Positions 840 through 60,780 of a DNA stretch of 64,000 nucleotides are shown here, piece by piece. The position numbers and the translations under genes were made by a program. Every line of letters starts with the position of its first letter. Within the stretch, counting starts at the first letter, position 1. This DNA is from an uncultured Methylomirabilota bacterium. GTDB lineage: Bacteria > Methylomirabilota > Methylomirabilia > Methylomirabilales > 2-02-FULL-66-22. The notes under the pieces are model-generated. The model was not told the origin of the DNA and made no database searches. It was given only the letters and a program-made list of their open reading frames with translations. The stretch is from positions 3,878 through 67,877 of the forward strand of contig CAVQPC010000077.1 of NCBI GenBank assembly GCA_963714585.1, read 5' to 3'.

Positions 840-2207
<1,368 letters not shown>

Positions 2208-2213
2208 GGGGCC

Positions 2214-3710
2214 TCACCCCGTGCTTGCAGGAAGCTCCACGACCGCGCGCGTCCCCTCGCCCGGCGCGCTTTCCAGGTGGATGGAGCCCCCGTGATCTCG
2301 GGCCAGTCGGCGGCAGATGGCCAGGCCCAAGCCGGTCCCTCCCGAGGCGCCTCGGGTGGTGAAGAAAGGCTCGAAGGCATGCGCCAGGACGTCGGCATCC
2401 ATTCCCGGCCCGGTGTCGCTCACCGTCACGCGCACCGTTGGCATCCCGCCGTCCTCCCGCGTGGCCTCGGTGGTGAGGGTGAGCCTCCCGCCCCGTTCCA
2501 TGGCCTCCAGGGCGTTGGTGATCAGGTTCAGGAGTAGCTCCTGCATCTGCGCAGGATCGGCCATGACTGGGGGCACATCCTCGCCCAGGTGTTGGGCGAC
2601 CGCAATCCCCTTCCGCCGGACTTCGGATGTAGTCAGGACCTGGAGATCCACGAGGAGCGCATTCACGTCCACGGGCACCCGCACGGCCTCCGGCCTGGCC
2701 GCATCCAGGAAGCGCCGGGCTCCCGCGACCACCCGATCCACGTGTCCCTGGATGAGGCGCAAGCGCTCCTTGAGTCCGGCGTCGGAGACGTCCTCTTCCA
2801 GGAGTTGGAGGTGGCCGGACACGGCGGTGAGAGGGGTCCCCACGTCGTGGGCCATGGCCGCCGCCATCTCGCCAGCCGCCGCCAGCCGCTCGTTGCGAGC
2901 CACCTGCTGCTGTGCCCGGTAGAGTCGCTCATTGACGGTGCGCAGCTCGGCGGTCGCCTCGGAGACTTGGCGCGTCAGCTCCGTCTGGAAGGACCCCACC
3001 CGCTCCAGCATCCGGTTCAGGCCCCGCGAGAGCCGCCCCAGCTCGTCCCGCCGATCCTCGGGAGCCCGCACGTTCAGGTCCCCGGCCTCCGCCCGCTGCA
3101 TGACCCCCGCCAAGTGGCGGACCGGCGACGTGAAGGCCCGGTTCATGAGGACCGACAGGCTGGTTATGAGGAGGATCCCCGTGACCACACCGAGCCCGAT
3201 GGCCTGTCGCTCCGCGTGGCGCGCCAAGGCATCCGTGCGCCCCAGGGGGAGGGACAAGGCGACTGCCCCCACGCTGCGCCGGTCCTCCCAGATGGGGACC
3301 GCCACCCGCCAAGATCGCATCTCCCCTTGGGTTTTCAGGGTGGTGATCTCCTGCCCTTCCCGCGCCGCGATCTCTACTTCCGGCCAGGGAGGATGTGAGG
3401 GGCCCGCCGAGGCCCACTCGACGAGCCCACGGGACGTCACGGCGTAGATGGCTGCATCCCGGACCACACTGCCCCGGCCCAGCAGGCTGGTCAACTCCTG
3501 CTGCAGGGTCCCCGCCTCGACGGGCCCGTGGCTGGAGACGACGGAGGCAGCCAATTCCCGCGCCAGCGCCAACCCGCTGGTGCGCAGATCGTCCTCGGTG
3601 GCCCCCCGGGACATCCGGATGGTGAGGAACGTGGTGAGCGCCAGCACCGAGAGGACCACCGCCATCGTCACGACCACGATCTTGGTCCGGAGACTCCATA
3701 CCCTCCGCAT
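2214..3710 (-). CDS. membrane sensor histidine kinase with HAMP domain
   Basis: TM segments, HAMP, H-box MAHDVGTPLT, HATPase G-boxes DTGPGM and GTGLGLAI; lies 7 bp upstream of the NtrC-type regulator; start set at the ATG at 3710. Confidence 0.9.
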   Translation of the reverse strand: MRRVWSLRTKIVVVTMAVVLSVLALTTFLTIRMSRGATEDDLRTSGLALARELAASVVSSHGPVEAGTLQQELTSLLGRGSVVRDAAIYAVTSRGLVEWASAGPSHPPWPEVEIAAREGQEITTLKTQGEMRSWRVAVPIWEDRRSVGAVALSLPLGRTDALARHAERQAIGLGVVTGILLITSLSVLMNRAFTSPVRHLAGVMQRAEAGDLNVRAPEDRRDELGRLSRGLNRMLERVGSFQTELTRQVSEATAELRTVNERLYRAQQQVARNERLAAAGEMAAAMAHDVGTPLTAVSGHLQLLEEDVSDAGLKERLRLIQGHVDRVVAGARRFLDAARPEAVRVPVDVNALLVDLQVLTTSEVRRKGIAVAQHLGEDVPPVMADPAQMQELLLNLITNALEAMERGGRLTLTTEATREDGGMPTVRVTVSDTGPGMDADVLAHAFEPFFTTRGASGGTGLGLAICRRLARDHGGSIHLESAPGEGTRAVVELPASTG

Positions 3711-3934
3711 GCATCGTTCTCCGCCGCTCTCGGCGGCCGCATCGCTCGGGGAGCGCTTGACGCCGTTAATCATAAGCTCCCTACCCTAGTCCGGCAAGAT
3801 GACGGGCCCGCACAGCCCTAGCGGAATACGCCTTGTGGCTTCCTGCTGTTGCGCTACCATGCTCTGCGGGAAGGATCCTACGATGTGTGGGGGATGTCGG
3901 GGAGTGGATGCACGCTCGCCTGGAGGGTCTCGTC

Positions 3935-4100
3935 ATGGAAATCGATCGGCTGACTTCCCTGCGCCAGGTTCCCATGTTCTCGATGCTTGAACCGGCGCAC
4001 CTCGCCGTGCTCGCGCGGATGACCCACCGTCAGCATTACCGTAAGGGACAGATTATCTACTACCGGGGCGATTCCGGCAATGCCATTTACCTACTGATAA
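3935..4100 (+). pseudogene. N-terminal fragment of a Crp/FNR-type cyclic-nucleotide-binding regulator
   Basis: LRQVPMFSMLEPAHLAVLARMTHRQHYRKGQIIYYRGDSGNAIYLLI matches the first half of a cNMP-binding fold; homology stops abruptly near 4100. Confidence 0.55.
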
Positions 4101-4110
4101 GGAGACGGGA

Positions 4111-4251
4111 GTGGAGAACGTGTTGCATGCCGTCGATGGTTCCGTTCGCCCTGGCGAGGCGGCGGCATTGGCGCACCGCCTGCTTCCCCGGGATGCCGAG
4201 ACGCTGGTCCTCCAGGTGGTGCCCCAACTGCCTTATGCCTGGTCTGCCTAG
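4111..4251 (+). pseudogene. 46-aa N-terminal fragment resembling a universal stress protein
   Basis: GGAG RBS then GTG; VENVLHAVDGSVRPGEAAALAHRLLPRDAETLVLQVV resembles a USP N-terminus and is then terminated. Confidence 0.45.
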
Positions 4252-4375
4252 CGCCGGACCCACGAGCTGTCCGGCAAGGCTCAAGCAGCGGCAGCCTGCC
4301 GCTTGGAAAAACAACCGCCGCGGGAAGGGTGAGACCTCCCCGCGGCGGTCATATGCGTAATCGGGACGCCTCGGC

Positions 4376-4873
4376 TTAGTCGATGGCCGCCGGCTCTTCG
4401 ATCTCCTTCCCTGCCTCGTGGAGCAGAAGCACATGCGCGGCGACCTCTTCTAGCCGCGCCTGGCCCAAACGATCTTCCGCCAGGCTGAAGCCCACCTCCT
4501 CCTCCAGGAACATGTGGTGGACGAATTCCTTGACCAAGGCGAGGCCCTTCTCGCGAACGAGCGGGGCCATTGCCTCGCCGATCGGGCAGGAGGTGAGCGC
4601 CTTGAATTCCGCGAGGCGGGTTTCCAGGTCCCGATGTTCCTGCGCCATCTCGGCGACCACGCCTGCGGCGTCCGGACCGGTCTCGGCCAGCGGACGGAAC
4701 ACCCACCGTTCCTCCGAGCCCCAGTACTCGCGCAACTGCATGTCAAGGTAGTTCGCGAGGTTCCTGGCCACCGTGGCCCAATGGGACGACTGCGTCAGGA
4801 GCGCTCGGTCCAGGGACACCAGGGCCTTCCGGATGGTCCGATGATTCTTTCGGAATAGATCGGTCGCGATCAT
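4376..4873 (-). CDS. hemerythrin-like (HHE cation-binding) domain protein
   Basis: H/E-rich four-helix pattern (KNHRTIRKAL...EHRDLE...HHMFLEEE); starts 7 bp after the malic-enzyme stop, so probably co-transcribed. Confidence 0.7.
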   Translation of the reverse strand: MIATDLFRKNHRTIRKALVSLDRALLTQSSHWATVARNLANYLDMQLREYWGSEERWVFRPLAETGPDAAGVVAEMAQEHRDLETRLAEFKALTSCPIGEAMAPLVREKGLALVKEFVHHMFLEEEVGFSLAEDRLGQARLEEVAAHVLLLHEAGKEIEEPAAID

Positions 4874-4879
4874 GCTCCC

Positions 4880-7390
4880 TCACCCCACCAGCCCGAGCTT
4901 CCCCTCGTAGATGTAGGCCCGGGCGTTCTCGGCGACCACCTCGGGATCGATCTTCAGGCGTGCCACCCCGGTCTCCATGGCGGCGGTGGCCACGGCCTTG
5001 GCGACGGCCACCGGCACCCGGAAGTCCAGCATGGTGGGGAGGATGTACTCCCGCTTCAGCTCCTTGTCGCTCACCAGGGCCGCGATGGCCTCCGCGGCGG
5101 CGATCTTCATGGCGTCATTGATCTCGCGGGCGCGCACATCCAGAGCGCCCCGGAAGATCCCGGGGAAGCCCAGGGAGTTGTTCACCTGGTTCTCGAAATC
5201 CGAGCGGCCGGTGGCCACGACCGCGGCCCCGCCCGACTTGGCCTCGTCGGGGAAGATCTCGGGGACCGGGTTCGCCATGGCGAAGACGATGGCGTCTTTC
5301 GCCATGGTCCGCACCATTTCCGGTGTGACGGCCTTGGCCACCGAGAGGCCGATGAAGGCGTCGGCCCCCACCAGGGCGTCGGCCAGCGTCCCGGTGCGCC
5401 GCGCCTTGTTCGTGCAGTGGGCCATCTCGACCTTCACCGGGTTCATCCCCTCCGTCCGCCCCTCGTAGACGATGCCCTTGGTGTCACAGAGGAGGAGGTC
5501 CTTCACGCCGACTTTCAGGAAGAGGCGGGCGACCGCGATGGCCGAGGCCCCGGCCCCGTTCAGGACCACCGTGGCCTCCGCCAGGGTCCGCCCCGTCACC
5601 TTCAGGGCGTTCAGCATGGCCGCCAGCACGATCACGGCCGTCCCGTGCTGGTCGTCGTGCATGACGGGGATGTCCAGCTCCTTCTTCAGCCGGTCCTCGA
5701 CCGCGAAGCAGCGGGGGGCCGCGATGTCCTCCAGGTTGATCCCGCCGAAGACCGGGGCGATGGCCTTCACCACCGCCACGATCTCGTCGACGTCCTGGGT
5801 GGCGATGCAGATGGGGAAGGCCTCGACCCCGCCGAAGGTCTTGAAGAGCACGGCCTTGCCCTCCATGACGGGCATGGCGGCCCGGGCGCCGATGTTGCCC
5901 AACCCCAGGACGGCGCTGCCATCCGAGACCACGGCCACCAGGTTGCCCTTGGCGGTGAGCTCGTACACCTTGGCCGGGTCCTGCCGGATGGCTTCGACCG
6001 GGAGGGTCGCCCCCGGCGGGAGGTAGAGCAGGTTCAGGATGTGGGCGTCCTTGATGGGCACCTTGCTCAGGATCCGGAGCTTGCCGCGGAAGCGGCGGTG
6101 CAGCTCCATGGCCTCTTCCTTCTGGCTGAGGGGCTTGCCCGGGGCCCGGGGCTCGATCGGGACGCTGCCCTCGTAGATGAAATGGAGGGTCCGCTCCGCG
6201 ATGGTCGCGGGGTCCATCTTGGATTCCCCGCTCTGCATGGCGGCCTTGGCCACCGCGGCGGCGATGGTGGGGGCCACGTGGAAGTCGAAGAGCGGGGGGA
6301 CGATGTGCTCGGGGGTCAAGTCGGCCGCGGGCACCAGCCCGGCCAGGGCCTGGGCGGCCGCGAGCAGGATGGGGGTCGTGACATTGCGGGCCTGGATGTC
6401 CAGGAGGCCCCGCAGGACCCCGGGGAAGACCAGGGCGATGTCGAGCTGGTTCGGGAAGTCCGACCGGCCGGTGGCGACGATCGCGGCGCCGGCCGCCTTG
6501 GCCTCGGCCGGCAGGATCTCGGGCGTGGGGACGGCCAGGGCGAAGACGATGGCCTGGGCGGCCATGCGCGCGACCATCTCGGGGCTCACCACGCCCCCCT
6601 TCGAGAGGCCCACGAATACATCCGCGCCTTGGAGGGCCTCGGCCAGGGACCCGGCGAAGTTCTCGGGGTTGGTTTGCCGAGCGACCTCGGCCTTCACCCA
6701 GTTCATGTTGACCGGGCGATACTTGTGGAGGGCGCCGGCGCTATCGCAGACGATGAGCCGCTGCGCCCCGGCCGCGACGAGCAGGCGCGCCACCCCCACC
6801 CCTGCCGGGCCCGCCCCGCCGATGACGATGCGCGCATCCTCCAGGCGCTTGCCCACCAGGGTCAAGGCATTCAGCAGGCCCGCCAGCACCAGGACGCCCG
6901 CCCCATGGGCATGGTTGTGGAAGATGGGCACGTTCACCGCTCGCTGCAGGTGGTCCTCCAGGGAGAAACAGCGCGGGGAACTGATATCCTCCAGGCAGAA
7001 GGCCCCGAAGGTCGGGGCGAGCATGGCCACGGTCTGGATCATCTCGTAGAGCGTGTCCACGCGCAGGCACATGGGGAAGGCGTCGACCCCCGCGAAGGTC
7101 TGGAAGAGGACCGACTTCGCTTCCATGATGGGCAGGGCAGCCTCGGGACCCACCGCGCCCATGCCGAAGAGGGCGGAGCCGTCCGTGATGAGGGCGATGG
7201 TGTTCCCCCGGCAGGTGTACTCGAAGGACTTCCGGGGATCCTTATGGATGGCGAGGCACGGTTCGGCCACGCCCGGGGTGTACACCAGGCTGAGGGTGGC
7301 CCGGTCCTTCACGGGCATCTTGCTCTCCACCCCGATCAGGCCGCGGTGGCGGCGGCGGTAGTCCAGGGCATCGTCCTCGTGGATCATCAT
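4880..7390 (-). CDS. tandem double malic enzyme: two full NAD(P)-malic-enzyme modules in one 836-aa protein
   Basis: Both halves carry ME motifs. The C-half is canonical (VSDGSAVLGLGNIG, PVMEGK, HDDQHGTA, NQVNN); the N-half is degenerate. AAGGAG RBS before ATGATG at 7390; the upstream 115 codons of the ORF look non-coding. Confidence 0.9.
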   Translation of the reverse strand: MMIHEDDALDYRRRHRGLIGVESKMPVKDRATLSLVYTPGVAEPCLAIHKDPRKSFEYTCRGNTIALITDGSALFGMGAVGPEAALPIMEAKSVLFQTFAGVDAFPMCLRVDTLYEMIQTVAMLAPTFGAFCLEDISSPRCFSLEDHLQRAVNVPIFHNHAHGAGVLVLAGLLNALTLVGKRLEDARIVIGGAGPAGVGVARLLVAAGAQRLIVCDSAGALHKYRPVNMNWVKAEVARQTNPENFAGSLAEALQGADVFVGLSKGGVVSPEMVARMAAQAIVFALAVPTPEILPAEAKAAGAAIVATGRSDFPNQLDIALVFPGVLRGLLDIQARNVTTPILLAAAQALAGLVPAADLTPEHIVPPLFDFHVAPTIAAAVAKAAMQSGESKMDPATIAERTLHFIYEGSVPIEPRAPGKPLSQKEEAMELHRRFRGKLRILSKVPIKDAHILNLLYLPPGATLPVEAIRQDPAKVYELTAKGNLVAVVSDGSAVLGLGNIGARAAMPVMEGKAVLFKTFGGVEAFPICIATQDVDEIVAVVKAIAPVFGGINLEDIAAPRCFAVEDRLKKELDIPVMHDDQHGTAVIVLAAMLNALKVTGRTLAEATVVLNGAGASAIAVARLFLKVGVKDLLLCDTKGIVYEGRTEGMNPVKVEMAHCTNKARRTGTLADALVGADAFIGLSVAKAVTPEMVRTMAKDAIVFAMANPVPEIFPDEAKSGGAAVVATGRSDFENQVNNSLGFPGIFRGALDVRAREINDAMKIAAAEAIAALVSDKELKREYILPTMLDFRVPVAVAKAVATAAMETGVARLKIDPEVVAENARAYIYEGKLGLVG

Positions 7391-25361: not shown

Positions 25362-27212
25362 TCACAGCCCCTGCGGCGCCGGATGCGGCTGCGGCTCGGC
25401 CAGGCCGGGCTGGACCCGTGACGGGGACGTCCGCGGGACCTTGCGGCCGGCCTCGGACGGTACCTGCTCCGCCTCGTAGCGGCGGAGGAGCGTCTCGCGC
25501 GTGATCCAGAGTTGGTCGCGCCGGAGCTCCCACACCCGCCTCCCGCGAAGACTCGCAGGGTTGTAGGCCCAGGTCAGGCACTTGGCGTGCAGGTTCTCCC
25601 AGAAATCGGCAAACCGTCGCCTCCACCCGGCGGCGCCATCCCGGGGGACCAGCTCAAACCCCCAGCGCTCGGCCATCTTGGCCAGGTGCACGGGCGTGTA
25701 GCGGCTGCCGAATGCCCCCTCGCCCCGGAAAGCCCGGACCCGCGCGAGGCGCGGGTCGGTCTGGATGTAGACGCTGAGATCCCTGAGCGACTGGACCAGT
25801 TGCCGCCGGAAAGCGAGAGCCCAGGCCAGGTCCGATCGCCGGTCCCCTAGGGGCGGGATGTGCTCGTTCCACAGGTGGAGCTCGCCCACCAGGTCCCCGC
25901 GGCGAACCTGCGTGCCGTCGGATAGGGCCAGATCCTGCCGGCTTTCCCCGAGGGCCAGCCGGAACAGGCAGCCCCGTCCGTGGCTGAACTCGAAGATGTG
26001 GCACGTCCGCCGGAGGCAGGCGTCCAGGCCGCGCACCAGCGGTCGCAAGGCCGGGGTCGCCCCCGCGGTAGCCGGCTCTTCAGATGGGAGCGGCACGAGG
26101 CGGCCGTCGTGCGACAGGGCAAAGGTTTCACCCCGCCAGACGACCTGCCGGCCTCCGGCGCCCATGCACCAGATCAGGGCGGTCAGCAGGTCCCGCAGCG
26201 GGAGCCAGACCATCCAGCGGCGGGCCGTCCGATCCCGCGTCTCACCGGTGATGAGCCACACCACGGTCCAGCGCAGCAGGAGGGACGCGACCAGAGCCAG
26301 AAGCGCCTGCGGGCTGCCGTCGGTCCAGAGCACCAGGACGACGGCCAGCGGGGTGCTGAAGGTGAGAAGGAGGCCGGGGTACTCCCGGGGGCGGCTCACC
26401 CGGTGGCAGTGGGTCCAGCGCACCTCTCGATCCCACTGCGCGCGGAAGGTGGTGGCGCCGAGGACGTTCTCGACGATATAGTCGGACAGGTACACCTTCA
26501 GGCCCAGATCGGCGATCCGCGCCCCCAGTTGGTAGTCATCCACCAGGTAATCCGCCACGGCGGCGAATCCGCCCAGCCGCAGCAGGTCGTCACGCCGCAA
26601 GGCGAGGGTGGAGCCCAGGGCGAAGCGCATCCGGAGCACCCGGCGGGCGACGACCACCAGCGGCAGGTACGTGGCCCCCCAGTAGAGCGCTTCGAGCCTG
26701 GCGGTGAAGGTGACGGCTTCCATCCCCCGGAAGAGGCACGTGACCAGGCCGACGGACCGGTCGGCGAGGGGCGCCACCACGCGCCGCAGGTAGTCCGGCC
26801 CGACCCGCATGTCGCTGTCGCTCACCACCAGGATCGCGTGCCGGGCGTGGGCGGCCATGGCGTGCAGCAGGCCGGCCTTGCGGTTGGTCCGGTTCGTGGG
26901 GGCGACGACGAGCCGGATGCTCCGCGTGGGGCAGTCTCGCTGCAGGCGCTTGACGACGGCCACGGCCGGATCCGCCGCGTCGGCCACACCGAACAGCAGC
27001 TCGAAGTCCGGGTAGTCCTGCCGGCAGAAGCTCAGGAAGTTCCGGTACGCGTCCGCATCCAGCCCCCGCACAGGCTTGAGGATGGAGACGGGCGGCTGGA
27101 AGGCGGAATCGGGTGCGGACCGCCGCCGCAGAAAGGCCCGCACCCACCACCAGGCCAGCAGCCAGAAAAGCCAGCTCGCGACGAGGAGCACCTCGAGAAT
27201 CGTGGTGAGCAT
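25362..27212 (-). CDS. GT2/GT21 glycosyltransferase (ceramide glucosyltransferase / HpnI-like) with a ~225-aa uncharacterised C-terminal extension
   Basis: PPVSILKPVRGLD, QDYPDFELLF, VVSDSDMRV, GLVTCLFRG motifs plus TM segments; the C-terminal soluble part is not recognised with confidence. Confidence 0.85.
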   Translation of the reverse strand: MLTTILEVLLVASWLFWLLAWWWVRAFLRRRSAPDSAFQPPVSILKPVRGLDADAYRNFLSFCRQDYPDFELLFGVADAADPAVAVVKRLQRDCPTRSIRLVVAPTNRTNRKAGLLHAMAAHARHAILVVSDSDMRVGPDYLRRVVAPLADRSVGLVTCLFRGMEAVTFTARLEALYWGATYLPLVVVARRVLRMRFALGSTLALRRDDLLRLGGFAAVADYLVDDYQLGARIADLGLKVYLSDYIVENVLGATTFRAQWDREVRWTHCHRVSRPREYPGLLLTFSTPLAVVLVLWTDGSPQALLALVASLLLRWTVVWLITGETRDRTARRWMVWLPLRDLLTALIWCMGAGGRQVVWRGETFALSHDGRLVPLPSEEPATAGATPALRPLVRGLDACLRRTCHIFEFSHGRGCLFRLALGESRQDLALSDGTQVRRGDLVGELHLWNEHIPPLGDRRSDLAWALAFRRQLVQSLRDLSVYIQTDPRLARVRAFRGEGAFGSRYTPVHLAKMAERWGFELVPRDGAAGWRRRFADFWENLHAKCLTWAYNPASLRGRRVWELRRDQLWITRETLLRRYEAEQVPSEAGRKVPRTSPSRVQPGLAEPQPHPAPQGL

Positions 27213-27339
27213 CGCGTTCCCCTCATTCCACGCCCAGGGCGCCCCGCACGGTCTCCCGGAGGATGGCGAGCCCCCCCGCGGGGTCGCCGCCCAGGTCGGC
27301 GGAGCGAGGTGCCTCCCGCCGCCCGAGCCTCGGCCCCCG

Positions 27340-27658
27340 CCAGGAAGGCTTCGACCACCTCCCGGTAGCGGGGGAGCCCGAAGAGGAGGGTCACGTTGAC
27401 ATTGATCCCCTCGCTGAGAAGCGCCCGGATGGCCGGAACGCCTTCCCGCGTGCCCGGGACCTTGATCATGAGGTTGGGCCGATCCGCCGCCGCCCAGAGC
27501 CGCCGGGCCTCCTCGATGGTCCCGGCCGTGTCGTGGGCGAGGTGTGGAGAGACCTCCAGGCTCACGAAGCCGTCAGCCCCGTCCAGGCGGTCGTAGATCG
27601 GGCGGAACAGGTCCGCGGTCTGCTGGATGTCCTCGACGGGATTCTCCTTCATGGTCAT
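27340..27658 (-). pseudogene. tal: transaldolase remnant (central ~100 residues only)
   Basis: DIQQTADLFRPIYDRLDGADGFVSLEVSPHLAHDTAGTIEEARRLW...NLMIKVPGT...GINVNVTLLF matches the central part of long-type transaldolase; the N-terminal ~80 aa and the C-terminal half are absent. Confidence 0.7.
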
Positions 27659-27711: not shown

Positions 27712-28080
27712 TTAGTATAGGGTCCTAGTCACGGAATGGTAACCGGTTGCCCCGTTGGGAGAGGGGTCGTGGGAGGTCTCGATCTGGAGGGCGCCGGTCC
27801 CGTCCGTGGCGCGGACGCGGAACGTGTGCCGGCCGCCCTGTCGCGGCCAGTCGTAGACCCACTGGACCCAGGTGCGCGAGCTCAAGGGTGGGGTCCGGAG
27901 GACGGCCTCGGCCCACGGGCCGGCGTCCACCTGGACCTCGACCTTTTGGATGCCCCGATCGCCGGCCCAGGCGATCCCCCCGACGGGGACCTTCCCGTCC
28001 TGGACGCGGTCCGTCGCCACGCTGTCGATGATGGACAGGATCTGGGGCCGGGCCTGGCGGCTCCAGTCGCGGTCCCCCAT
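27712..28080 (-). pseudogene. isolated Moco-dimerisation (Ig-like) domain of a sulfite-oxidase-family enzyme
   Basis: GIAWAGDRGIQKVEVQVDAGPWAEAVL...WVQWVYDW...FRVRATDGTG; the catalytic Moco domain is missing. Confidence 0.65.
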
Positions 28081-28092
28081 TACTCCTGTCGA

Positions 28093-28374
28093 GTGGCTAG
28101 GGGACCCCACCAAGATTATTCCGCCAAGGAGCGTGCGGCCTACGACGAGCGGGTCCTGGCCATTCGCACCGTGCTGGAGCTGGTCGAACAGCGACAGAGG
28201 CGCCGCCTCTCCCAGCGGACGCTCGCCGAGCGCATGGGGGTCAGCCAGCCGGTGATCGCCCGGCTGGAGAAACCGCTCGAGCCGGCGTGGCGGCAGCCGT
28301 CCCTGAGCATGCTCTCGCGATATGCCGCCGCCCTCGGTCTGGTCCTTGAGGTGCGTCTCCGCCCCGCGGCCTGA
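28093..28374 (+). CDS. XRE-family HTH protein, antitoxin-like (orphan)
   Basis: RRLSQRTLAERMGVSQPVIARLEK HTH with a short N-terminal ERAAYDE segment typical of HigA-like antitoxins; GTG start uncertain; begins at the junction with the sulfite-oxidase fragment. Confidence 0.6.
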   Translation: MARGPHQDYSAKERAAYDERVLAIRTVLELVEQRQRRRLSQRTLAERMGVSQPVIARLEKPLEPAWRQPSLSMLSRYAAALGLVLEVRLRPAA

Positions 28375-28571
28375 TCCGATCGCTCGGCGCCTGACGTTGC
28401 TCGCGATGACGTCCATCCCTCAGGCGGTCAGTCCACTCAGCGAACAACGCATTCTGCCCGGTCCGACGAGGGGGACTCGGCTCGGAGCAAGCATCAGGAT
28501 ACATGAAAAGCAACGACCCGGATTGCCAGGATCGATGGGGCGAAGCCGCTGCTCTGCAGGATTCCGAGCAC

Positions 28572-28750
28572 TTCCTTTTGTCCCGCTCCCGGTTTCCCGG
28601 ACACCAACCCAGACAGATTCTGCGGCCCCCGCACCACGAGGGCTCTTCGGTAACACTGCCGAAGCGGCCGGGCCCGTCGCTCCGATGTCCCGGTCAACGG
28701 AAATGACTTCCGCAAGTGCGCTACGTAACAAGTTGCTCCAGAAGCAATGT
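28572..28750 (+). repeat. cassette-boundary repeat, copy A
   Basis: Aligns along about 180 bp with copy B and about 110 bp with copy C; core CGGCCGGGCCCGTCGCTCCGATGTCCCGGTCAACGGAAAT. Confidence 0.8.
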
Positions 28751-28797
28751 ACCCCGATATTAAGGTACTGGTCAGTACCTCGTTGTACCCTTTCCCC

Positions 28798-28827
28798 TTG
28801 ACAGCCGCCCGGCTGTCTGAGTAGTGT
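28798..28827 (+). promoter_or_regulatory. candidate sigma-70 promoter with embedded palindrome upstream of the Panacea gene pair
   Basis: TTGACA (28798-28803), 18 nt, TAGTGT; the spacer contains the palindrome ACAGCCG-CC-CGGCTGT (28801-28816). Confidence 0.4.
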
Positions 28828-29125
28828 GTGGGTGGCTCAAGGCCACGGCTGCCCTCATTGAGGTCCCCAGCTAGAGCCAAGAAATACCTCAGCTTCTGGT
28901 TATTTCATGCCGATGGTCAGTGAGGACGGACTGCCCGACGCTACCGACCCTCACTCTTTACTCCAGGAAATTCTTCCCATCTTGGGATAGCGCCAAAATA
29001 GTCGTGCACGTGGTGCCCTCTCCTCCAATCAGCAGTGGTTCCGTCGGAACCCATCACCTGACCTGGAGGTGGTCCTCATGCCGTCCGCCCACACCATTGC
29101 CCGGCCCGCGAGAGAAGTCCAAGTG

Positions 29126-29689
29126 ATGTCCTCAAAGAAGACTGTTGCCCCTATTAGGATCAAGACCGCCACCGAGTATGATCCGGAGAAGGCTGTCCAC
29201 ACTCTCGCATATGTCGCGAAGAAGTTGGGCGGGGCAGCCGACATGTACAAGCTCCTCAAGATTATTTATTTTGCGGATAAGCGTCATCTGGAGCGGTATG
29301 GACGCTTCATCTTCGGCGACACCTACATCGCCATGAACCACGGTCCCGTTCCGAGTGGGGCATACGATGCCATCAAGGACGTACGCGGCGTGGCGGTATG
29401 GTGCAGACGACATCCTCTGGCGAAGAAGGCGCTTCGGGTCCAGGGCACGGAGATAATCCCCAGGGTCGAACCAGATCTAGACTTGTTCAGTGAGTCAGAC
29501 CTGGAGTGCCTGGACGAGACAATCAGGGAGTGTCGGGACCTGAGCTTCCAAGAGCTGAAGAAGAGGAGCCATGGTGACCCCGCCTTTCGGAAGGCAGATG
29601 CCAATGGCGAGATGACGATCGAGAGTATCGCCGCAACCCTGCCCAACGCCGGGGCTGTGCTGGAGTACCTTCATGGATCTTCGGAGTAA
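29126..29689 (+). CDS. Panacea (DUF4065, SocA/GepA-like) domain protein, putative PanA-type antitoxin
   Basis: MYKLLKIIYFADKRHLERYGRFIFGDTYIAMNHGPVPSGAYD is the DUF4065 signature; start could also be 29069. Confidence 0.8.
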   Translation: MSSKKTVAPIRIKTATEYDPEKAVHTLAYVAKKLGGAADMYKLLKIIYFADKRHLERYGRFIFGDTYIAMNHGPVPSGAYDAIKDVRGVAVWCRRHPLAKKALRVQGTEIIPRVEPDLDLFSESDLECLDETIRECRDLSFQELKKRSHGDPAFRKADANGEMTIESIAATLPNAGAVLEYLHGSSE

Positions 29690-29697
29690 TCGCCGGG

Positions 29698-30177
29698 ATG
29701 GCCATCGGCGACTCCTTTCCCCTCGAGAAGCGAAAGGCCTACGTTGAGCGCAACCTCAAGGCGTGGTCGGTCATCTACCTCTACTGCGAGTCCATCTCCC
29801 CGCCGCACGACAAGTTCCTTCTGATCGTCAGCGCGTCTCCATACGTGCTTTACTTCTTCATCAACACTGAGCCATACGAACTCGCCAAGTCGAACCCAAA
29901 GATGAAAGAGACGCAGGTCTCCATCGACGTGAAGGAGCATCCTTTTCTCTCCTACGATTCCTTCATCGACTGCTCGCGGCTGCTCTCCCTCCCGGCCTAC
30001 GAGGTTGAGCGGCAACTCGTCGCCGACGTCGGGAGAGTCAAAGGTGTGATATCGGATGCCATTCAGGCGAAGGTTCTTGAGGCGGTGAGGAAAAACGGGG
30101 TCATGAGCCCACGCAAGAAGAAAATGATCTTGGAACAACTGTTGAGCAAGACGCCTCGGCGGGGAGGCAGGGCCTGA
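29698..30177 (+). CDS. hypothetical 159-aa protein, candidate Panacea-associated toxin
   Basis: Starts 9 nt after the PanA stop with a GGAG upstream; no family recognised by eye. Confidence 0.6.
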   Translation: MAIGDSFPLEKRKAYVERNLKAWSVIYLYCESISPPHDKFLLIVSASPYVLYFFINTEPYELAKSNPKMKETQVSIDVKEHPFLSYDSFIDCSRLLSLPAYEVERQLVADVGRVKGVISDAIQAKVLEAVRKNGVMSPRKKKMILEQLLSKTPRRGGRA

Positions 30178-30224
30178 TTAACTCTCACCAAGGACGATGG
30201 CGGGGTCCTTCCGTCACGCCCCTT

Positions 30225-30408
30225 ATTCCTTCTGTACCGCACCCGGTTTCCTGGACAGCAACTCGGACAGATTCTGCGGCCTTCCGCACCGACGAGGAGG
30301 GGTCTTCCGTGACGCTGGCGAACCGGCCGGGCTCGTCGCTCCGACGTCCCGGTCGACGGAAATAGCTCTCCTAAGTGGGCTGCTTAACAAATTCCTTCAG
30401 AACCAACG
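30225..30408 (+). repeat. cassette-boundary repeat, copy B
   Basis: Same family as copy A; core CGGCCGGGCTCGTCGCTCCGACGTCCCGGTCGACGGAAAT; ends with GCTTAACAAATTCCTTCAGAACCAA. Confidence 0.8.
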
Positions 30409-30437
30409 GGTCCCCCATTACACCCGTTTGACCCGGA

Positions 30438-31012: not shown

Positions 31013-31231
31013 CTACTCGCCCGAAGTCCCGTCGGGGAAAGCGCGGCCCCACGTATTCCCACGCTTCAGGCACTGCCACTTGGGCGATGTGGCCTCGACT
31101 ACACAGCCACCGAGGATGATTCTTCGGTCAGGATACTCGGCTTTTACGTCCGAGGTCACCGTGCCGTATATGACCTGCGCGATCTCCCGCGACCCGCAGC
31201 GTTGGCAATAGGGGTCTTCCCACGGTTTCAT
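31013..31231 (-). CDS. small zinc-ribbon-like protein (72 aa)
   Basis: Two Cys pairs: CQRCGS ... GGCVV...WQC; its start codon lies inside repeat copy C. Confidence 0.5.
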   Translation of the reverse strand: MKPWEDPYCQRCGSREIAQVIYGTVTSDVKAEYPDRRIILGGCVVEATSPKWQCLKRGNTWGRAFPDGTSGE

Positions 31232-31232
31232 C

Positions 31233-31343
31233 CTGCAGCCCCCTGCACCGCGAGGCCGGTTCTTCCGTGACGCTGGCGAGACGGCCGGACCCGTCGCTCC
31301 GACGTCCCGATCAACGGGAATAGTTTTCGTACGTGCGCTACGT
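31233..31343 (+). repeat. cassette-boundary repeat, copy C (left part replaced by the zinc-ribbon gene)
   Basis: CTGCAGCCCCCTGCACCGCGAGG...CGGCCGGACCCGTCGCTCCGACGTCCCGATCAACGGGAAT aligns with copies A and B. Confidence 0.75.
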
Positions 31344-32496
31344 CCCCCTCGCCCACGCGTCCGCCGGAAACGGCATCAATGGGGGGGAGCGCCGTGCGCT
31401 GCAGCGTTGCGAGACCTTCCCTCACATTGGTCGGGGACCGCACGGCACGCAGCCCCTGGGGCTCACACCAGGGGCCAGCAGGGAGAATGTAGTAATCTCA
31501 AGGCCGTCCCCCATTTTCCCTTCGTCCCTCGCCTCGAGAGTCCACTCAGTCAACAACGCATTACGGGTCCCGCATTACGCGTTATGACGCGAGGTGGGCC
31601 GGCTCGTCAAATAGGGGTATGCGATGGGGCCGCTCGCGTCTCCCCGCTGCGGGGGCGGCAGCCGATCCTCACCAGTGTCGGGCACCTGGCGGTGTTCGAG
31701 ATGACCCCAGACCCCCCGGGCTCTCCCTCACCCGCTCCCACAGTCCGGCCGCGTTCCTCGCCGCCCAGCCCCACCCCGGGATCCCATGGTCGGTGGCGGT
31801 CGCCCAAATTCGCCGAGTGCCCCTCCCGAACCCCTGAGCCAATGCGGCCCCGGCGAAGCGCTCTCCGCACCCTTTGGGCTTGACATCGGTCCCCCGCCTG
31901 TGGGAAGCTTAAACGGGTTGGGCCCGTGCCCTGGCATGCCTCGGCCTCGCGGGCGTCGGGGCCCGACACCGCCCAAGAGAATATTCGGAGTACGTCACCA
32001 TCACCAGTTCCAGGCCATAGGGTCCGCGAACTCTACATCGAGAAGAGTGGCGGTCCTGTGCGGTGCAGGCTTGCTGGGTTCGCCGGCCGCGGCCAGGATG
32101 TGGATGTGACTCTCCTGCCTATCCACCTCGTTGCCGGTGCTCCACTGGGAGTCAGCCGCGTCGTCGCACCCCCGCACTGCCCGCTCCGATCCGCGCCAGC
32201 CCCTTCCAACAGGGCCGGCGAGCCTCCCGGAAAGCAGCTTCGCCTAGTCGCCCCCGGCACCCCGGCGGCGGCACAGTCCCCCGGAGACTGCCTTGGTCCC
32301 CGCCGGGATCCCCGCGTCGCACTTGACTCCACCTTCGACCGCGCGGTATCGGGGATCCAGGCCGAACGTCACGGGCCCGCTTCCCAGCAGGGACGCATAC
32401 CGCGGCCCAGATCACCGTGTCCGAGAAGGGGCGTCATGTTTCCCACGCTCTGCGCCACGTGAGCCCCATGCTGTGGACTGGCTGAGAGCGTCTCCT

Positions 32497-58515: not shown

Positions 58516-58667
58516 GACAACTGCGCCTGCGACAGATTGCGATCGATGCGGAACCGAATGATCTGTTTCGCAAGCTCGTACTCTTCTTCCAGGTCCTCAT
58601 ATGCCTTTCGAAACTCAGGATTCTTCAGTTGAGTATCAAGATACTTGTCGAAGTCGGTCGTCTTCAT
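58512..58667 (-). pseudogene. HigA-like XRE antitoxin truncated after 51 codons at the IS630 junction
   Basis: MKTTDFDKYLDTQLKNPEFRKAYEDLEEEYELAKQIIRFRIDRNLSQAQL then stop; ATGA overlap with the toxin stop; the HTH is cut in helix 2. Confidence 0.6.
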
Positions 58668-59008
58668 ATGTTTCCCCTTGTACCTTCGGCGTGCTGCCTC
58701 ATGAGCAGCGCGGCTCGTTCAAGCTCCCTTCGGTCGAGCTTCATTCCCTTCTTTATGTAGCCTGAAGTCACTACGTACAAATGCTCCTGGTGCCAGAAGT
58801 AGAAGAATCGGCATGCGTCATGACCAAGCATGACCCTAAGCTCAAATAGTCCAGGCCAATCGGACACCTTCTTTGAATGGGGCTCCCTAAGGGAGGGGCC
58901 GAACTCCTGAAGCAGCCGTATCGAACGAGCCGCTTTGGCCTTCAGGCGGTCATGCAAGCCGTCCAGGAATTGGACCGCCGGCGGCAGAAGCTTGACTTTG
59001 TAGCCCAT
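58664..59008 (-). CDS. RelE/ParE-superfamily toxin (HigB / Gp49-like)
   Basis: LFELRVMLGHDACRFFYFWHQEHLYVVTSGYIKKGMKLDRRELERA fits the Gp49/HigB pattern; start at 59008 or 59023. Confidence 0.75.
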   Translation of the reverse strand: MGYKVKLLPPAVQFLDGLHDRLKAKAARSIRLLQEFGPSLREPHSKKVSDWPGLFELRVMLGHDACRFFYFWHQEHLYVVTSGYIKKGMKLDRRELERAALLMRQHAEGTRGNI

Positions 59009-59539
59009 GCAGGAATATACCATGCGTGATATGGCTGTGTCAAGCACGGATTGCCCTCCCCGGAAAGACCGATTCATTTGGCAGTCCGCTGTACGAGAAA
59101 GCCGACGTTGGGTCCAAAGATGGGCATAACACGTATAAGGCCTCCCCGAGTCAAGAGGCGTGGCCGAGCGCGACAAACCCGGAGTGGCTGCCAGAAGAGA
59201 AGAGACGCCGATAAAACAGCCCGACTTGGTTTCTACGATGGGTGCGGCAATGCAGCCTGCACCAAACACGTATCGAGAGTCGCCCGAGGCGCTCTAGAAT
59301 CTTATTAGTGCCCGACCGCCGTCCGAATCAAAAAAGGGGGTCACCTCCAGGGTGCCTCAGTTACTTTTGCGGCTCGGCGCGGGGCAGACCGCATATCGGT
59401 GTTCTGTTGTCGTGCGGCACCAGAAGATCGGGACCCGGGTGTGCGACCAATCAAATCGAGGGACTTGCCCGAACACAGAGAGCACAGAGGACAGTCCAGT
59501 TAAGCGAACAGGTTCCTGCACACCCTGTCCCTTTTTTCA

Positions 59540-60586
59540 TCAGCCGTCTTGATAGAATCGCATCGGGTCGAAAGCCTCCTTGTGCTTGAGCATGAAATAG
59601 AGGGTGCGGCCAAGCTTCTGTGCGATGATGGAGAGGGCCTTGGCCTTGCCGTACTTGGAGACCAGCTTGTGGTGAAGGCGTTGGGCGGGCTCGTTGTCGC
59701 GCAAGAAGGTGACCGCCGCTTCTGAGAAAGCCCACTTGAGATGGACGTTGCCGATCTTACTGTTGCGCGCTCCACTCTTTTTGCCCGCGGACTCGCGTGC
59801 GCACTTGACCAGGCGGCAGTAGGAGATGAAGTTGCCTACTGAGGAGAAGCGTGAAATGTCGTGGACCTCGTAGAGGATCACCAGGGACAGGATCTTGCCG
59901 ATGCCGGGAACGGTGCAGATGAGTCGCAGGGCCAGAGGATCGTGAGCGCGTGCTTGCTGGAGGACCGTCCGCTCGACGCTCAACAGCACTCGGTGCAAAG
60001 CGTCCAGGACGTCGATGTCGGCCTGGATGCTTTTGCTCACCATGGGTTCAGGGAAGTGCTCAGAGAGTTTGGCTCTATTGGTTCGGTAGTTGATGCGTTT
60101 CTGGAAGGCGGCCAGGTTGTACTGGGCGTTGGTGTTCTGGATGTGAGCGAGGAGCTCGCTTTGCTGGTGCATGAGGTACATGCGGCGACGAAGCAGATCA
60201 CGGGTGGAGCGCATGGCCTGAGGGTAGGCGTAGGCCAGGGGCAGCATACCGGCGCGCAGCAGGCCGGCGATCTTCTGGGAGTCAAGTTTGTCGTTCTTGG
60301 TCTTGCCGCCGTGGATCGCCTTCATATACAGGGCGTGACCGAGCACGAATGAGATGGCGTGTTGAGCACACACATCGGCGATCCAGTACCAGGTGAAGAT
60401 GCATTCCACGGCGACCACGATGTCTTCTCGATAGGGGCGTAAAGCTTCTAGAAGATGCTCACCGTCTGTGGGCAGGTTGCGGTGGAGGAGCACGGTACCT
60501 GCAGAGTCGAGGATGCACAGGTACATGCTTCTTGCGTGAAGATCGATGCCGCAATAGAATTGATGCTGTCGGGTGTAGAAGTGCAA
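59540..60586 (-). mobile_element. IS110-family (DEDD) transposase, element a
   Basis: YCGIDLHARSMY...AVECIFTWYW...KTKNDKLDSQKIA N-terminal DEDD domain and Transposase_20 C-domain (VPGIGKILSLVIL...SGARNSKIGNVHLKWAF); GAGAGGAGG RBS before the TTG at 60586. Confidence 0.9.
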
Positions 60587-60661
60587 TCTTGGCCTCCTCT
60601 CAAAATCGTTTAGTTGAGCGACGGTAGCTTTCCTACCGTACCTCCGAGGGGAGGCCTTAAT

Positions 60662-60780
60662 AAGTATCAAATCGTTGGAGCAGTCGCCTTAAGGGGCCGT
60701 CTTGAACCGCGAGTCGCGATCCCGTAAGGAACCTTGGTCTTTGGGCGTGGTCGGCGGCGCTGCTCAACTCTATGTTATGC
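60662..60780 (+). repeat. integron attC-like site 1
   Basis: ATCAAATCGTTGGAGCAGTCGCC ... GGCGCTGCTCAACTCTATGTTATGC; the inner arms pair with bulges and the right end is GTTATGC. Confidence 0.7.

Follow-up and report, generated by a model that had tools for sequence, protein, structure and literature searches.

The window analysed here, a stretch of 64,000 nucleotides from an uncultured Methylomirabilota bacterium, contains two adjacent plus-strand genes, panA (29078–29689) and panT (29698–30177), which raise the question of whether they form a toxin-antitoxin (TA) pair of the Panacea type and, if so, whether this pair is new. The preliminary description assigned the SocA/DUF4065 signature to the first gene, could not name a family for the second, and proposed a candidate new PanA-PanT pair. 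We find that the module is a real TA pair of a Panacea protein and a MazF-shaped partner. However, it is a diverged member of the PanT cluster T5, and the pairing has been known since 2022.

The panA gene encodes a standalone Panacea (DUF4065) antitoxin without an N-terminal accessory domain. Its start is ambiguous, as translation could begin at ATG 29126 (187 aa), at ATG 29078 (203 aa) or at GTG 29069, in each case ending at the stop codon 29687–29689. Gene callers on near-identical contigs choose ATG 29078, i.e., the 203-aa form, and the N-terminal extension is weakly conserved in a 66%-identical relative. Against the Pfam family SocA_Panacea (PF13274) the protein scores 74.4 bits (cutoff 25.7, E 1.8e-20) and passes the gathering threshold, in agreement with the signature first assigned to it. 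The match covers residues 43–152 of the 187-aa form and positions 1–110 of the 113 positions of the profile. The Panacea domain is followed by a C-terminal tail of about 35 aa with the pattern SHxDxA...LxYL, which is conserved in an alignment of 19 PanA sequences and is a candidate toxin-binding element. The Pfam search found no HTH or other DNA-binding domain in PanA, and no solved structure was found when a profile of the PanA proteins was compared with PDB. The SocA equivalog of NCBIfam (NF047745) gives 26.8 bits against a cutoff of 190; judged from its sequence, PanA has the domain of SocA, yet it is not SocA. In the SocA-SocB system of Caulobacter, a type VI TA, SocA contains the same Panacea domain, while the toxin SocB (cluster T10) is unrelated to the partner in the window. 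SocA is a ClpXP adaptor and not a direct inhibitor.

The second gene, panT, starts at ATG 29698, stops at 30175–30177 and encodes a protein of 159 aa, here referred to as the partner. It is separated from panA by a spacer of 8 nt, which recurs in the loci L001–L004 and suggests that the translation of the two genes is coupled. A ribosome-binding site, GGAG, can be read from the sequence at 29683–29686 on the plus strand, within the 3' end of panA and 11 nt before the ATG of panT. The peptide strings quoted for the partner in the preliminary description are all found in its translation. Searches of Pfam, NCBIfam, PADLOC and PHROGs give nothing significant for the partner; a weak NCBIfam match to HisA/HisF (13.5 bits, cutoff 180, E 0.047) was rejected as noise.

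The family around the partner is large. While a word-indexed search detects only four close relatives, 63–98% identical, an exhaustive HMMER search with a profile of the close relatives detects about 950 cluster representatives at E<=1e-3, 340 of them at E<=1e-10. The family members are nearly all about 150 aa long (140–160 aa) and match from end to end. Two alignments are used below: A3, built around the window protein and containing 113 family members, and A1, containing five sequences. In A3, K39 is invariant while N56, Q73, L84, S88 and C92 are near-invariant, and all six are present in the window protein. The motifs of the family in the 113-sequence alignment are PPKxK(Y/F)L, (I/V)N(S/T) and FLxHDSxIDC. 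None of the 113 members has a convincing match to any Pfam family, and a search of the family profile against the sequences in PDB returned noise only (E 0.5 or worse).

Is the partner consistently linked to Panacea genes? In all 19 loci examined, a Panacea gene is found immediately upstream of the partner homologue while the outer neighbours vary, and all 19 upstream proteins pass the Pfam Panacea model (best E 1.3e-24). The loci span Chloroflexota, Bacteroidota, and Delta-, Gamma- and Alphaproteobacteria, that is, at least five groups at the phylum or class level. On the contigs L001, L002, L019/L020, L021/L022 and L023/L024, which encode relatives that are 27–98% identical, the Panacea gene is directly upstream in every case. 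The 13 loci recovered from species-representative genomes belong to Anaerolineales, Chloroflexia, Deltaproteobacteria, Parabeggiatoa, Neomegalonema and several Bacteroidota, among them two cultured strains, Arcicella rigui KCTC 23307 and Myroides phaeus DSM 23313. In each of these 13, an ORF of 175–210 aa ends between -35 and +54 nt relative to the toxin-like ORF. In L009 the toxin-like gene is in pieces beside an intact PanA and appears to have been disrupted, as is often the case for toxins. The gene pair is clearly not a chance arrangement, as homologues are abundant at the protein level and every one of the 19 loci keeps the two genes together. The survey of adjacency to DUF4065 genes, which the preliminary description had proposed as a check, thus supports its view that an antitoxin gene of the PanA type is linked here to a gene for a toxin-like protein.

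The pairing itself was already catalogued. Kurata et al. 2022 (PNAS 119:e2102212119, PMC8832971) predicted 1,268 PanAT loci and divided the toxins into 88 clusters, T1–T88. Dataset S1 of that study contains, under T5, the pair from Myroides phaeus DSM 23313, a 'noNTD' PanA (WP_090409562.1) and a 'hypothetical protein' (WP_090409560.1), in the order A|T and with a gap of 5 nt. An exact-sequence look-up shows that the protein pair of our locus L015, also with a gap of 5 nt, is exactly WP_090409562.1/WP_090409560.1. Aligned with hhalign, profile A3 matches WP_090409560.1 with 99.6% probability (E 1.9e-24, 141 columns), and the shallower five-sequence profile A1 matches it with 96.5% probability (E 1e-9). 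From these profile alignments, the 159-aa partner is a member of the published PanT cluster T5, one of the 88 clusters, and the idea of a new PanA-PanT pair can therefore not be upheld.

The experimental record of T5 is short. Only one pair of this cluster was tested, from Chryseobacterium bovis (WP_076782182.1/WP_076782181.1). The toxin, WP_076782181.1, is toxic in E. coli; the C. bovis PanA proved toxic as well, no rescue was seen, and the pair was scored as 'Toxic' and not as 'TA' (PMC8832971). By HHpred, the T5 representative matches EndoA, MazF6 and MazF at 99.5% and CcdB at 98.5% in the same study. The MazF-like PanTs of T6 and T25 are validated TAs in E. coli, while the MazF-like PanT of T8 was non-toxic, as were 8 of 25 predicted PanTs (PMC8832971). 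In T6 from P. moraviensis (WP_083201923.1) and T25 from B. ruminantium (WP_026646888.1), a Panacea antitoxin neutralises a MazF-fold toxin. However, these are different sequence clusters, set apart from T5 by the published cluster labels, and T25 is recognisable as PemK by CDD while T5 is not.

Compared with the T5 pairs of Myroides phaeus and C. bovis, the module in the window combines the same two families with the antitoxin gene first; the genes are just as closely spaced, and PanA is again standalone ('noNTD'). The toxins resemble each other in length, about 150 aa, and in the motifs PPKxK, INS/T and HDSxIDC. However, the window partner is only 24–30% identical to the T5 members from Bacteroidota, it belongs to a small subgroup (63–98% identical) from high-GC environmental bacteria, and it has His-Asp-Lys where the T5 motif has Pro-Lys-x-Lys, as well as a basic C-terminal tail.

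Structurally, the partner is predicted to have an SH3-like barrel of the MazF type. The AlphaFold2 model, obtained with the 113-sequence alignment, has a pLDDT of 91.4 and a pTM of 0.87; a run with just five close sequences gave a pLDDT of 54 and was left out of the structure searches. The model consists of an N-terminal helix followed by a five- to six-stranded barrel (strands 24–30, 37–45, 49–56, 73–76, 88–99 and 114–117), with helices at 100–109, 120–131 and 138–149. In a Foldseek search against PDB, the six best matches are chains of MazF-mt1 (6kyt/6l2a), MazF from D. radiodurans (7d2n) and MazF from E. coli (5co7), with probabilities of 0.99–1.00 and TM-scores of 0.54–0.68 normalised to the length of MazF, while the seventh match has a probability of 0.15. 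The 50 best PDB matches include no CcdB chain, and CcdB is thus not the nearest structural neighbour. Among the viral models in BFVD, only two matches are confident, a 'PemK-like protein' and an 'Endoribonuclease', both with a probability of 1.00. The resemblance to a PemK/MazF-like barrel had been offered earlier as a tentative guess, with Foldseek on a predicted structure as a way to check it; the predicted fold now agrees with that guess, and MazF toxins are the only confident neighbours in PDB.

At the sequence level, the relationship to MazF is harder to detect. None of the 113 family members matches the Pfam family PemK_toxin (PF02452) at E<=0.1, and the window partner has no match to it at E<=1. 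Alignments with hhalign between the family and single MazF sequences are not significant, and neither is the alignment to a shallow MazF profile of four sequences (E 0.026, probability 1.9%). A search to deepen this profile returned, among the matches listed, only EndoA sequences that are 92–100% identical. Because our own sequence-level tests are not significant, the membership in MazF rests on the fold and on the HHpred match published for the T5 representative. In the alignment to EndoA, itself not significant, INS/T and HDSxIDC of the family pair with ITA/S and RDSVILL of MazF, and N56 with T48 of EndoA. The catalytic pair of MazF is an Arg before strand 2 (R29 in E. coli) and a Thr/Ser after strand 3 (T52). 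In the model, the invariant K39 precedes the strand 37–45, while N56 and S/T57 end the strand 49–56. From these strand positions only, it can be speculated that K39 and N56-S/T57 correspond to R29 and T52 of MazF. With Lys and Asn as the invariant residues, the chemistry or the target of PanT may differ from that of MazF.

The predicted fold of the partner is the same SH3-like barrel as in MazF/PemK/EndoA (PF02452; PDB 6kyt, 7d2n, 5co7, 4me7), and in MazF systems, as in this pair, the toxin gene comes second in a bicistronic type II TA. However, the window partner exceeds MazF by about 45 residues and has additional helices, one at the N-terminus and two at the C-terminus, it has no match to the Pfam sequence profile, and the catalytic Arg/Thr are not demonstrably conserved. 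The antitoxins also differ, as MazF is paired with MazE/PemI (AbrB or RHH) and the partner here with Panacea.

How is the pair expressed? Upstream of panA, about 250–300 nt away, lies a promoter-like TTGACA-N18-TAGTGT on the plus strand (28798–28827), the spacer of which contains a perfect 8+8 palindrome, GACAGCCG-CC-CGGCTGTC (28800–28817). A stricter sigma-70 scan does not call this site, because its -10 hexamer, TAGTGT, matches TATAAT at only three of six positions. The pattern TTGACA-N16-18-TANNNT is nevertheless found three times in the GC-rich window where 0.05 occurrences are expected, a 60-fold enrichment, and another of the three sites (59043–59014, minus strand) precedes a gene for a Gp49/HigB-like toxin. 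Motif and palindrome are identical in the 95%-identical relative L002. In the 66%-identical relative, L001, the upstream DNA is otherwise unalignable, but TTGACA-N17-TAGGCT is found at the same distance, about -280 nt, while the palindrome is absent. From these observations, a real promoter at 28798–28827 is plausible. The motif and the embedded palindrome seen in the preliminary description are thus both present, but only the motif is partly conserved. Its suggestion that the operon is autoregulated is not supported, because L001 lacks the palindrome and PanA is without a DNA-binding domain. Panacea itself is also unlikely to autoregulate transcription, as argued by Ernits et al. 2023 (PMC10440598).

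The module lies in a pocket of low GC content, 56–58% from 28700 to 30200, in a chromosome of about 70% GC. Pocket and module coincide in extent, and this suggests that the pair was acquired horizontally. The chromosomal neighbours encode G6PD, an MFS transporter, a GT21 glycosyltransferase, a CHASE2 cyclase and a TPR/FecR protein, and immediately to the left of the module there is a truncated transaldolase and an HTH_3 ORF. Copies of a dispersed element of about 150–180 nt, all on the plus strand, flank the module. Copy 1 (28572–28747) forms its left border, copy 2 (30226–30421) starts 49 nt past the panT stop, and copy 3 (31230–31343), which consists of the core only, lies beyond a cupin gene and a minus-strand ORF of 72 aa. 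Copies 1 and 2 are in direct orientation and 80% identical, and no further copies are found in the window. In contig L002, which is 95% identical, similarity to the window is confined to 28579–30421 and the outer flanks are unrelated; between the two, the left repeat is 86% and the right repeat 93% identical. The core of the repeat also occurs in eight metagenome contigs that are otherwise unlike the window. We regard the repeat as a lineage-specific dispersed intergenic element that marks synteny breakpoints between accessory modules.

Some of the repeat-containing contigs contain other TA-like genes, assigned by reading translations. L031, with three repeat copies, has DarT/DarG-like and DUF4258/zinc-ribbon pairs adjoining the repeat, L033 has a HigB/HigA-like pair beside it, and L027 an AbiEi-like gene.

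Two other interpretations of the repeat were rejected. An integron/attC element is not supported, as no integrase was detected in the window, the repeat shows no covariation and the synteny breakpoint with L002 is not at a GTTRRRY (R') box; no tyrosine recombinase is present among the Pfam families of the window ORFs (25 listed of 26 matched). A structured RNA is also unsupported, with no Rfam match at the gathering threshold or at E<=1 and no covariation. The consensus of the repeat folds into three short local hairpins only, with a covariation term of -0.19, and two of the three copies have a fold z-score near -2.2.

Taken together, we consider it likely that the two genes form a type II PanAT module, bicistronic and obtained by horizontal transfer, in which a T5 MazF-fold toxin is bound and neutralised by a standalone PanA. 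A single transcript would cover both genes, with the TTGACA-type promoter some 270 nt upstream as its probable start, and the 8-nt spacer and the ribosome-binding site inside panA would couple their translation. By analogy with MazF, PanT most likely acts as an endoribonuclease and thereby stops translation, and the standalone PanA would bind it and neutralise it directly. Direct neutralisation via the Panacea core has been demonstrated for a standalone Panacea antitoxin with another PanT (PMC10440598).

The pair and the fold could also be as described while the toxin is not an RNase, its MazF/CcdB barrel being directed against another target, e.g. as a gyrase poison. CcdB shares the fold and is among the published HHpred matches of T5, no PemK signal is seen in any of the 113 members, Lys and Asn are invariant instead of the Arg and Thr of MazF, and MazF lacks the extra N- and C-terminal helices. 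However, we find this unlikely, as six MazF chains and no CcdB are at the top of the structural matches, EndoA and MazF rank above CcdB in HHpred (PMC8832971), and INS/T and HDSxIDC pair with ITA/S and RDSVILL of MazF, although in a non-significant alignment. Even less probable, to the point of being remote, is a conserved non-toxic operon with some other function, for which 'PanT' would be a misnomer in T5. It would fit the non-toxicity of 8 of 25 predicted PanTs and the fact that rescue by PanA was never demonstrated for T5, but one T5 member is toxic (PMC8832971), and the predicted fold is that of a classical toxin. The patchy spread across phyla, the varying neighbours and the atypical GC content are moreover typical of selfish TA modules, and in L009 it is the toxin gene that is apparently disrupted beside an intact PanA.

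That the module serves mainly in anti-phage abortive infection would be compatible with the type II TA reading, and we see it as a tentative possibility, on balance somewhat doubtful. The 66%-identical homologue adjoins genes for a SIR2_2 protein of 1220 aa and an ATPase (AAA_15/AAA_21), a typical defence-island context, and the low-GC pocket is accessory with other TA-like genes nearby. Ernits et al. [quoted passage not shown] On the other hand, neither PanA nor PanT matches PADLOC, and the neighbours in the window (cupin, CHASE2 cyclase, glycosyltransferase) are not defence genes. Two further ideas do not exclude the others, and we hold them jointly to be improbable. T5 may have replaced Arg/Thr by Lys39/Asn56 and added the helices, and could then differ from the known MazF RNases in substrate or chemistry; and the repeat could be the recombination site of an undescribed system that shuffles TA cassettes, either independent of an integrase or with an integrase encoded at a distance.

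With the T5 MazF-fold PanAT module as the preferred reading, the apparently unrecognised toxin, which has no match in Pfam, NCBIfam, PADLOC or PHROGs, belongs to a large family that is already paired with Panacea in the literature, where a cluster number in a supplementary table is all that records it. Some 950 sequence clusters of PanT proteins with the MazF fold are thus without a family name. The value of the locus is modest: it exposes this annotation gap and offers a test case for T5, which experiments have so far established as a TA only in part. The flanking repeat is a separate lead on the shuffling of TA modules in this lineage, and a diverged high-GC representative of T5 could help to demonstrate the rescue and the mechanism that were left open by the 2022 study.

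The PanAT module is flanked on both sides by copies of a dispersed repeat, located in the window at 28572-28747 (copy 1), 30226-30421 (copy 2) and 31230-31343 (copy 3). The repeat is approximately 150-180 nt long and contains a strongly conserved core of about 95 nt, which includes …CTGGCGAAACGGCCGGGCCCGTCGCTCCGACGTCCCGGTCAACGGAAAT…. It is also present at 347-532 and 1998-2189 of L002, a 95%-identical contig, and when this contig is compared with the window, the similarity ends where the repeat copies sit. Further copies are found in the metagenome contigs L027-L034, of which L031 contains three (1572-1722, 2662-2726 and 2772-2925), and in unrelated contigs the same repeat adjoins other TA-like modules. 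The repeat has no match in Rfam, a search for covariation found none, and no integrase was detected among the listed Pfam matches of the ORFs in the 64-kb window.

Two shorter motifs also recur in the window. (A/C)G(C/G)GGTCCC(C/G)CATTAC occurs three times in the window (28068-28083, 30406-30421 and 31563-31578, i.e., with spacings of 2338 and 1157 nt), and the similarity to L002 stops exactly at the middle copy. A 24-nt motif, AGTCCACTCAG(C/T)(G/C)AACAACGCATT, is found at 28430 and 31539. Both motifs may be pieces of a bigger composite element. The repeat core is also adjoined by a conserved protein of about 190 amino acids (MVFREGEYVRHGSQPDWGIGRVLSLGENGK…) in three contigs, L029 (4212-5117, minus strand), L033 (546-1451, minus strand) and L031 (2735-3328, plus strand); the listed ORFs of this protein read through the repeat.

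Just left of the module are gene remnants, a transaldolase fragment and a neighbouring ORF (27032-27658 and 27712-28416, both on the minus strand). The fragment covers only positions 63-152 of the 285 in the profile, after which the frame degenerates. The neighbouring ORF has no match in Pfam; its C-terminus resembles a molybdoenzyme dimerisation domain. They point to a hotspot that has decayed or been rearranged, or to errors in the assembly. A small HTH_3/XRE-type ORF (about 28130-28374, plus strand; PF01381, E 2.5e-7) stops about 200 nt upstream of copy 1 and might encode an orphan antitoxin or a regulator that acts alone.

In Candidatus Parabeggiatoa, an intact PanA is followed by a T5 toxin homologue (L009:5741-6249) that is split across two or more ORFs and has probably become a pseudogene. 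In L001, the 66%-identical PanAT pair has a defence-island-like neighbourhood (1922-6605), with a SIR2_2 protein of 1220 aa, a protein resembling DNA_processg_A and an AAA_15/AAA_21 (DUF2813) ATPase.

Elsewhere in the window, an IS200-like Y1_Tnp match and a DUF4145 match are present among the ORFs, and an IS110-family transposase (59540-60670, minus strand; DEDD_Tnp_IS110 and Transposase_20) adjoins a Gp49/HigB-like toxin gene (58664-59269, minus strand). The PF05973 domain (E 1.9e-17) occupies the C-terminal 100 residues of this ORF and is preceded by a promoter-like TTGACA-N18-TATATT (59043-59014, minus strand), one of three motifs of the TTGACA-N16-18-TANNNT type in the whole window. This locus is probably a second TA module in the window.
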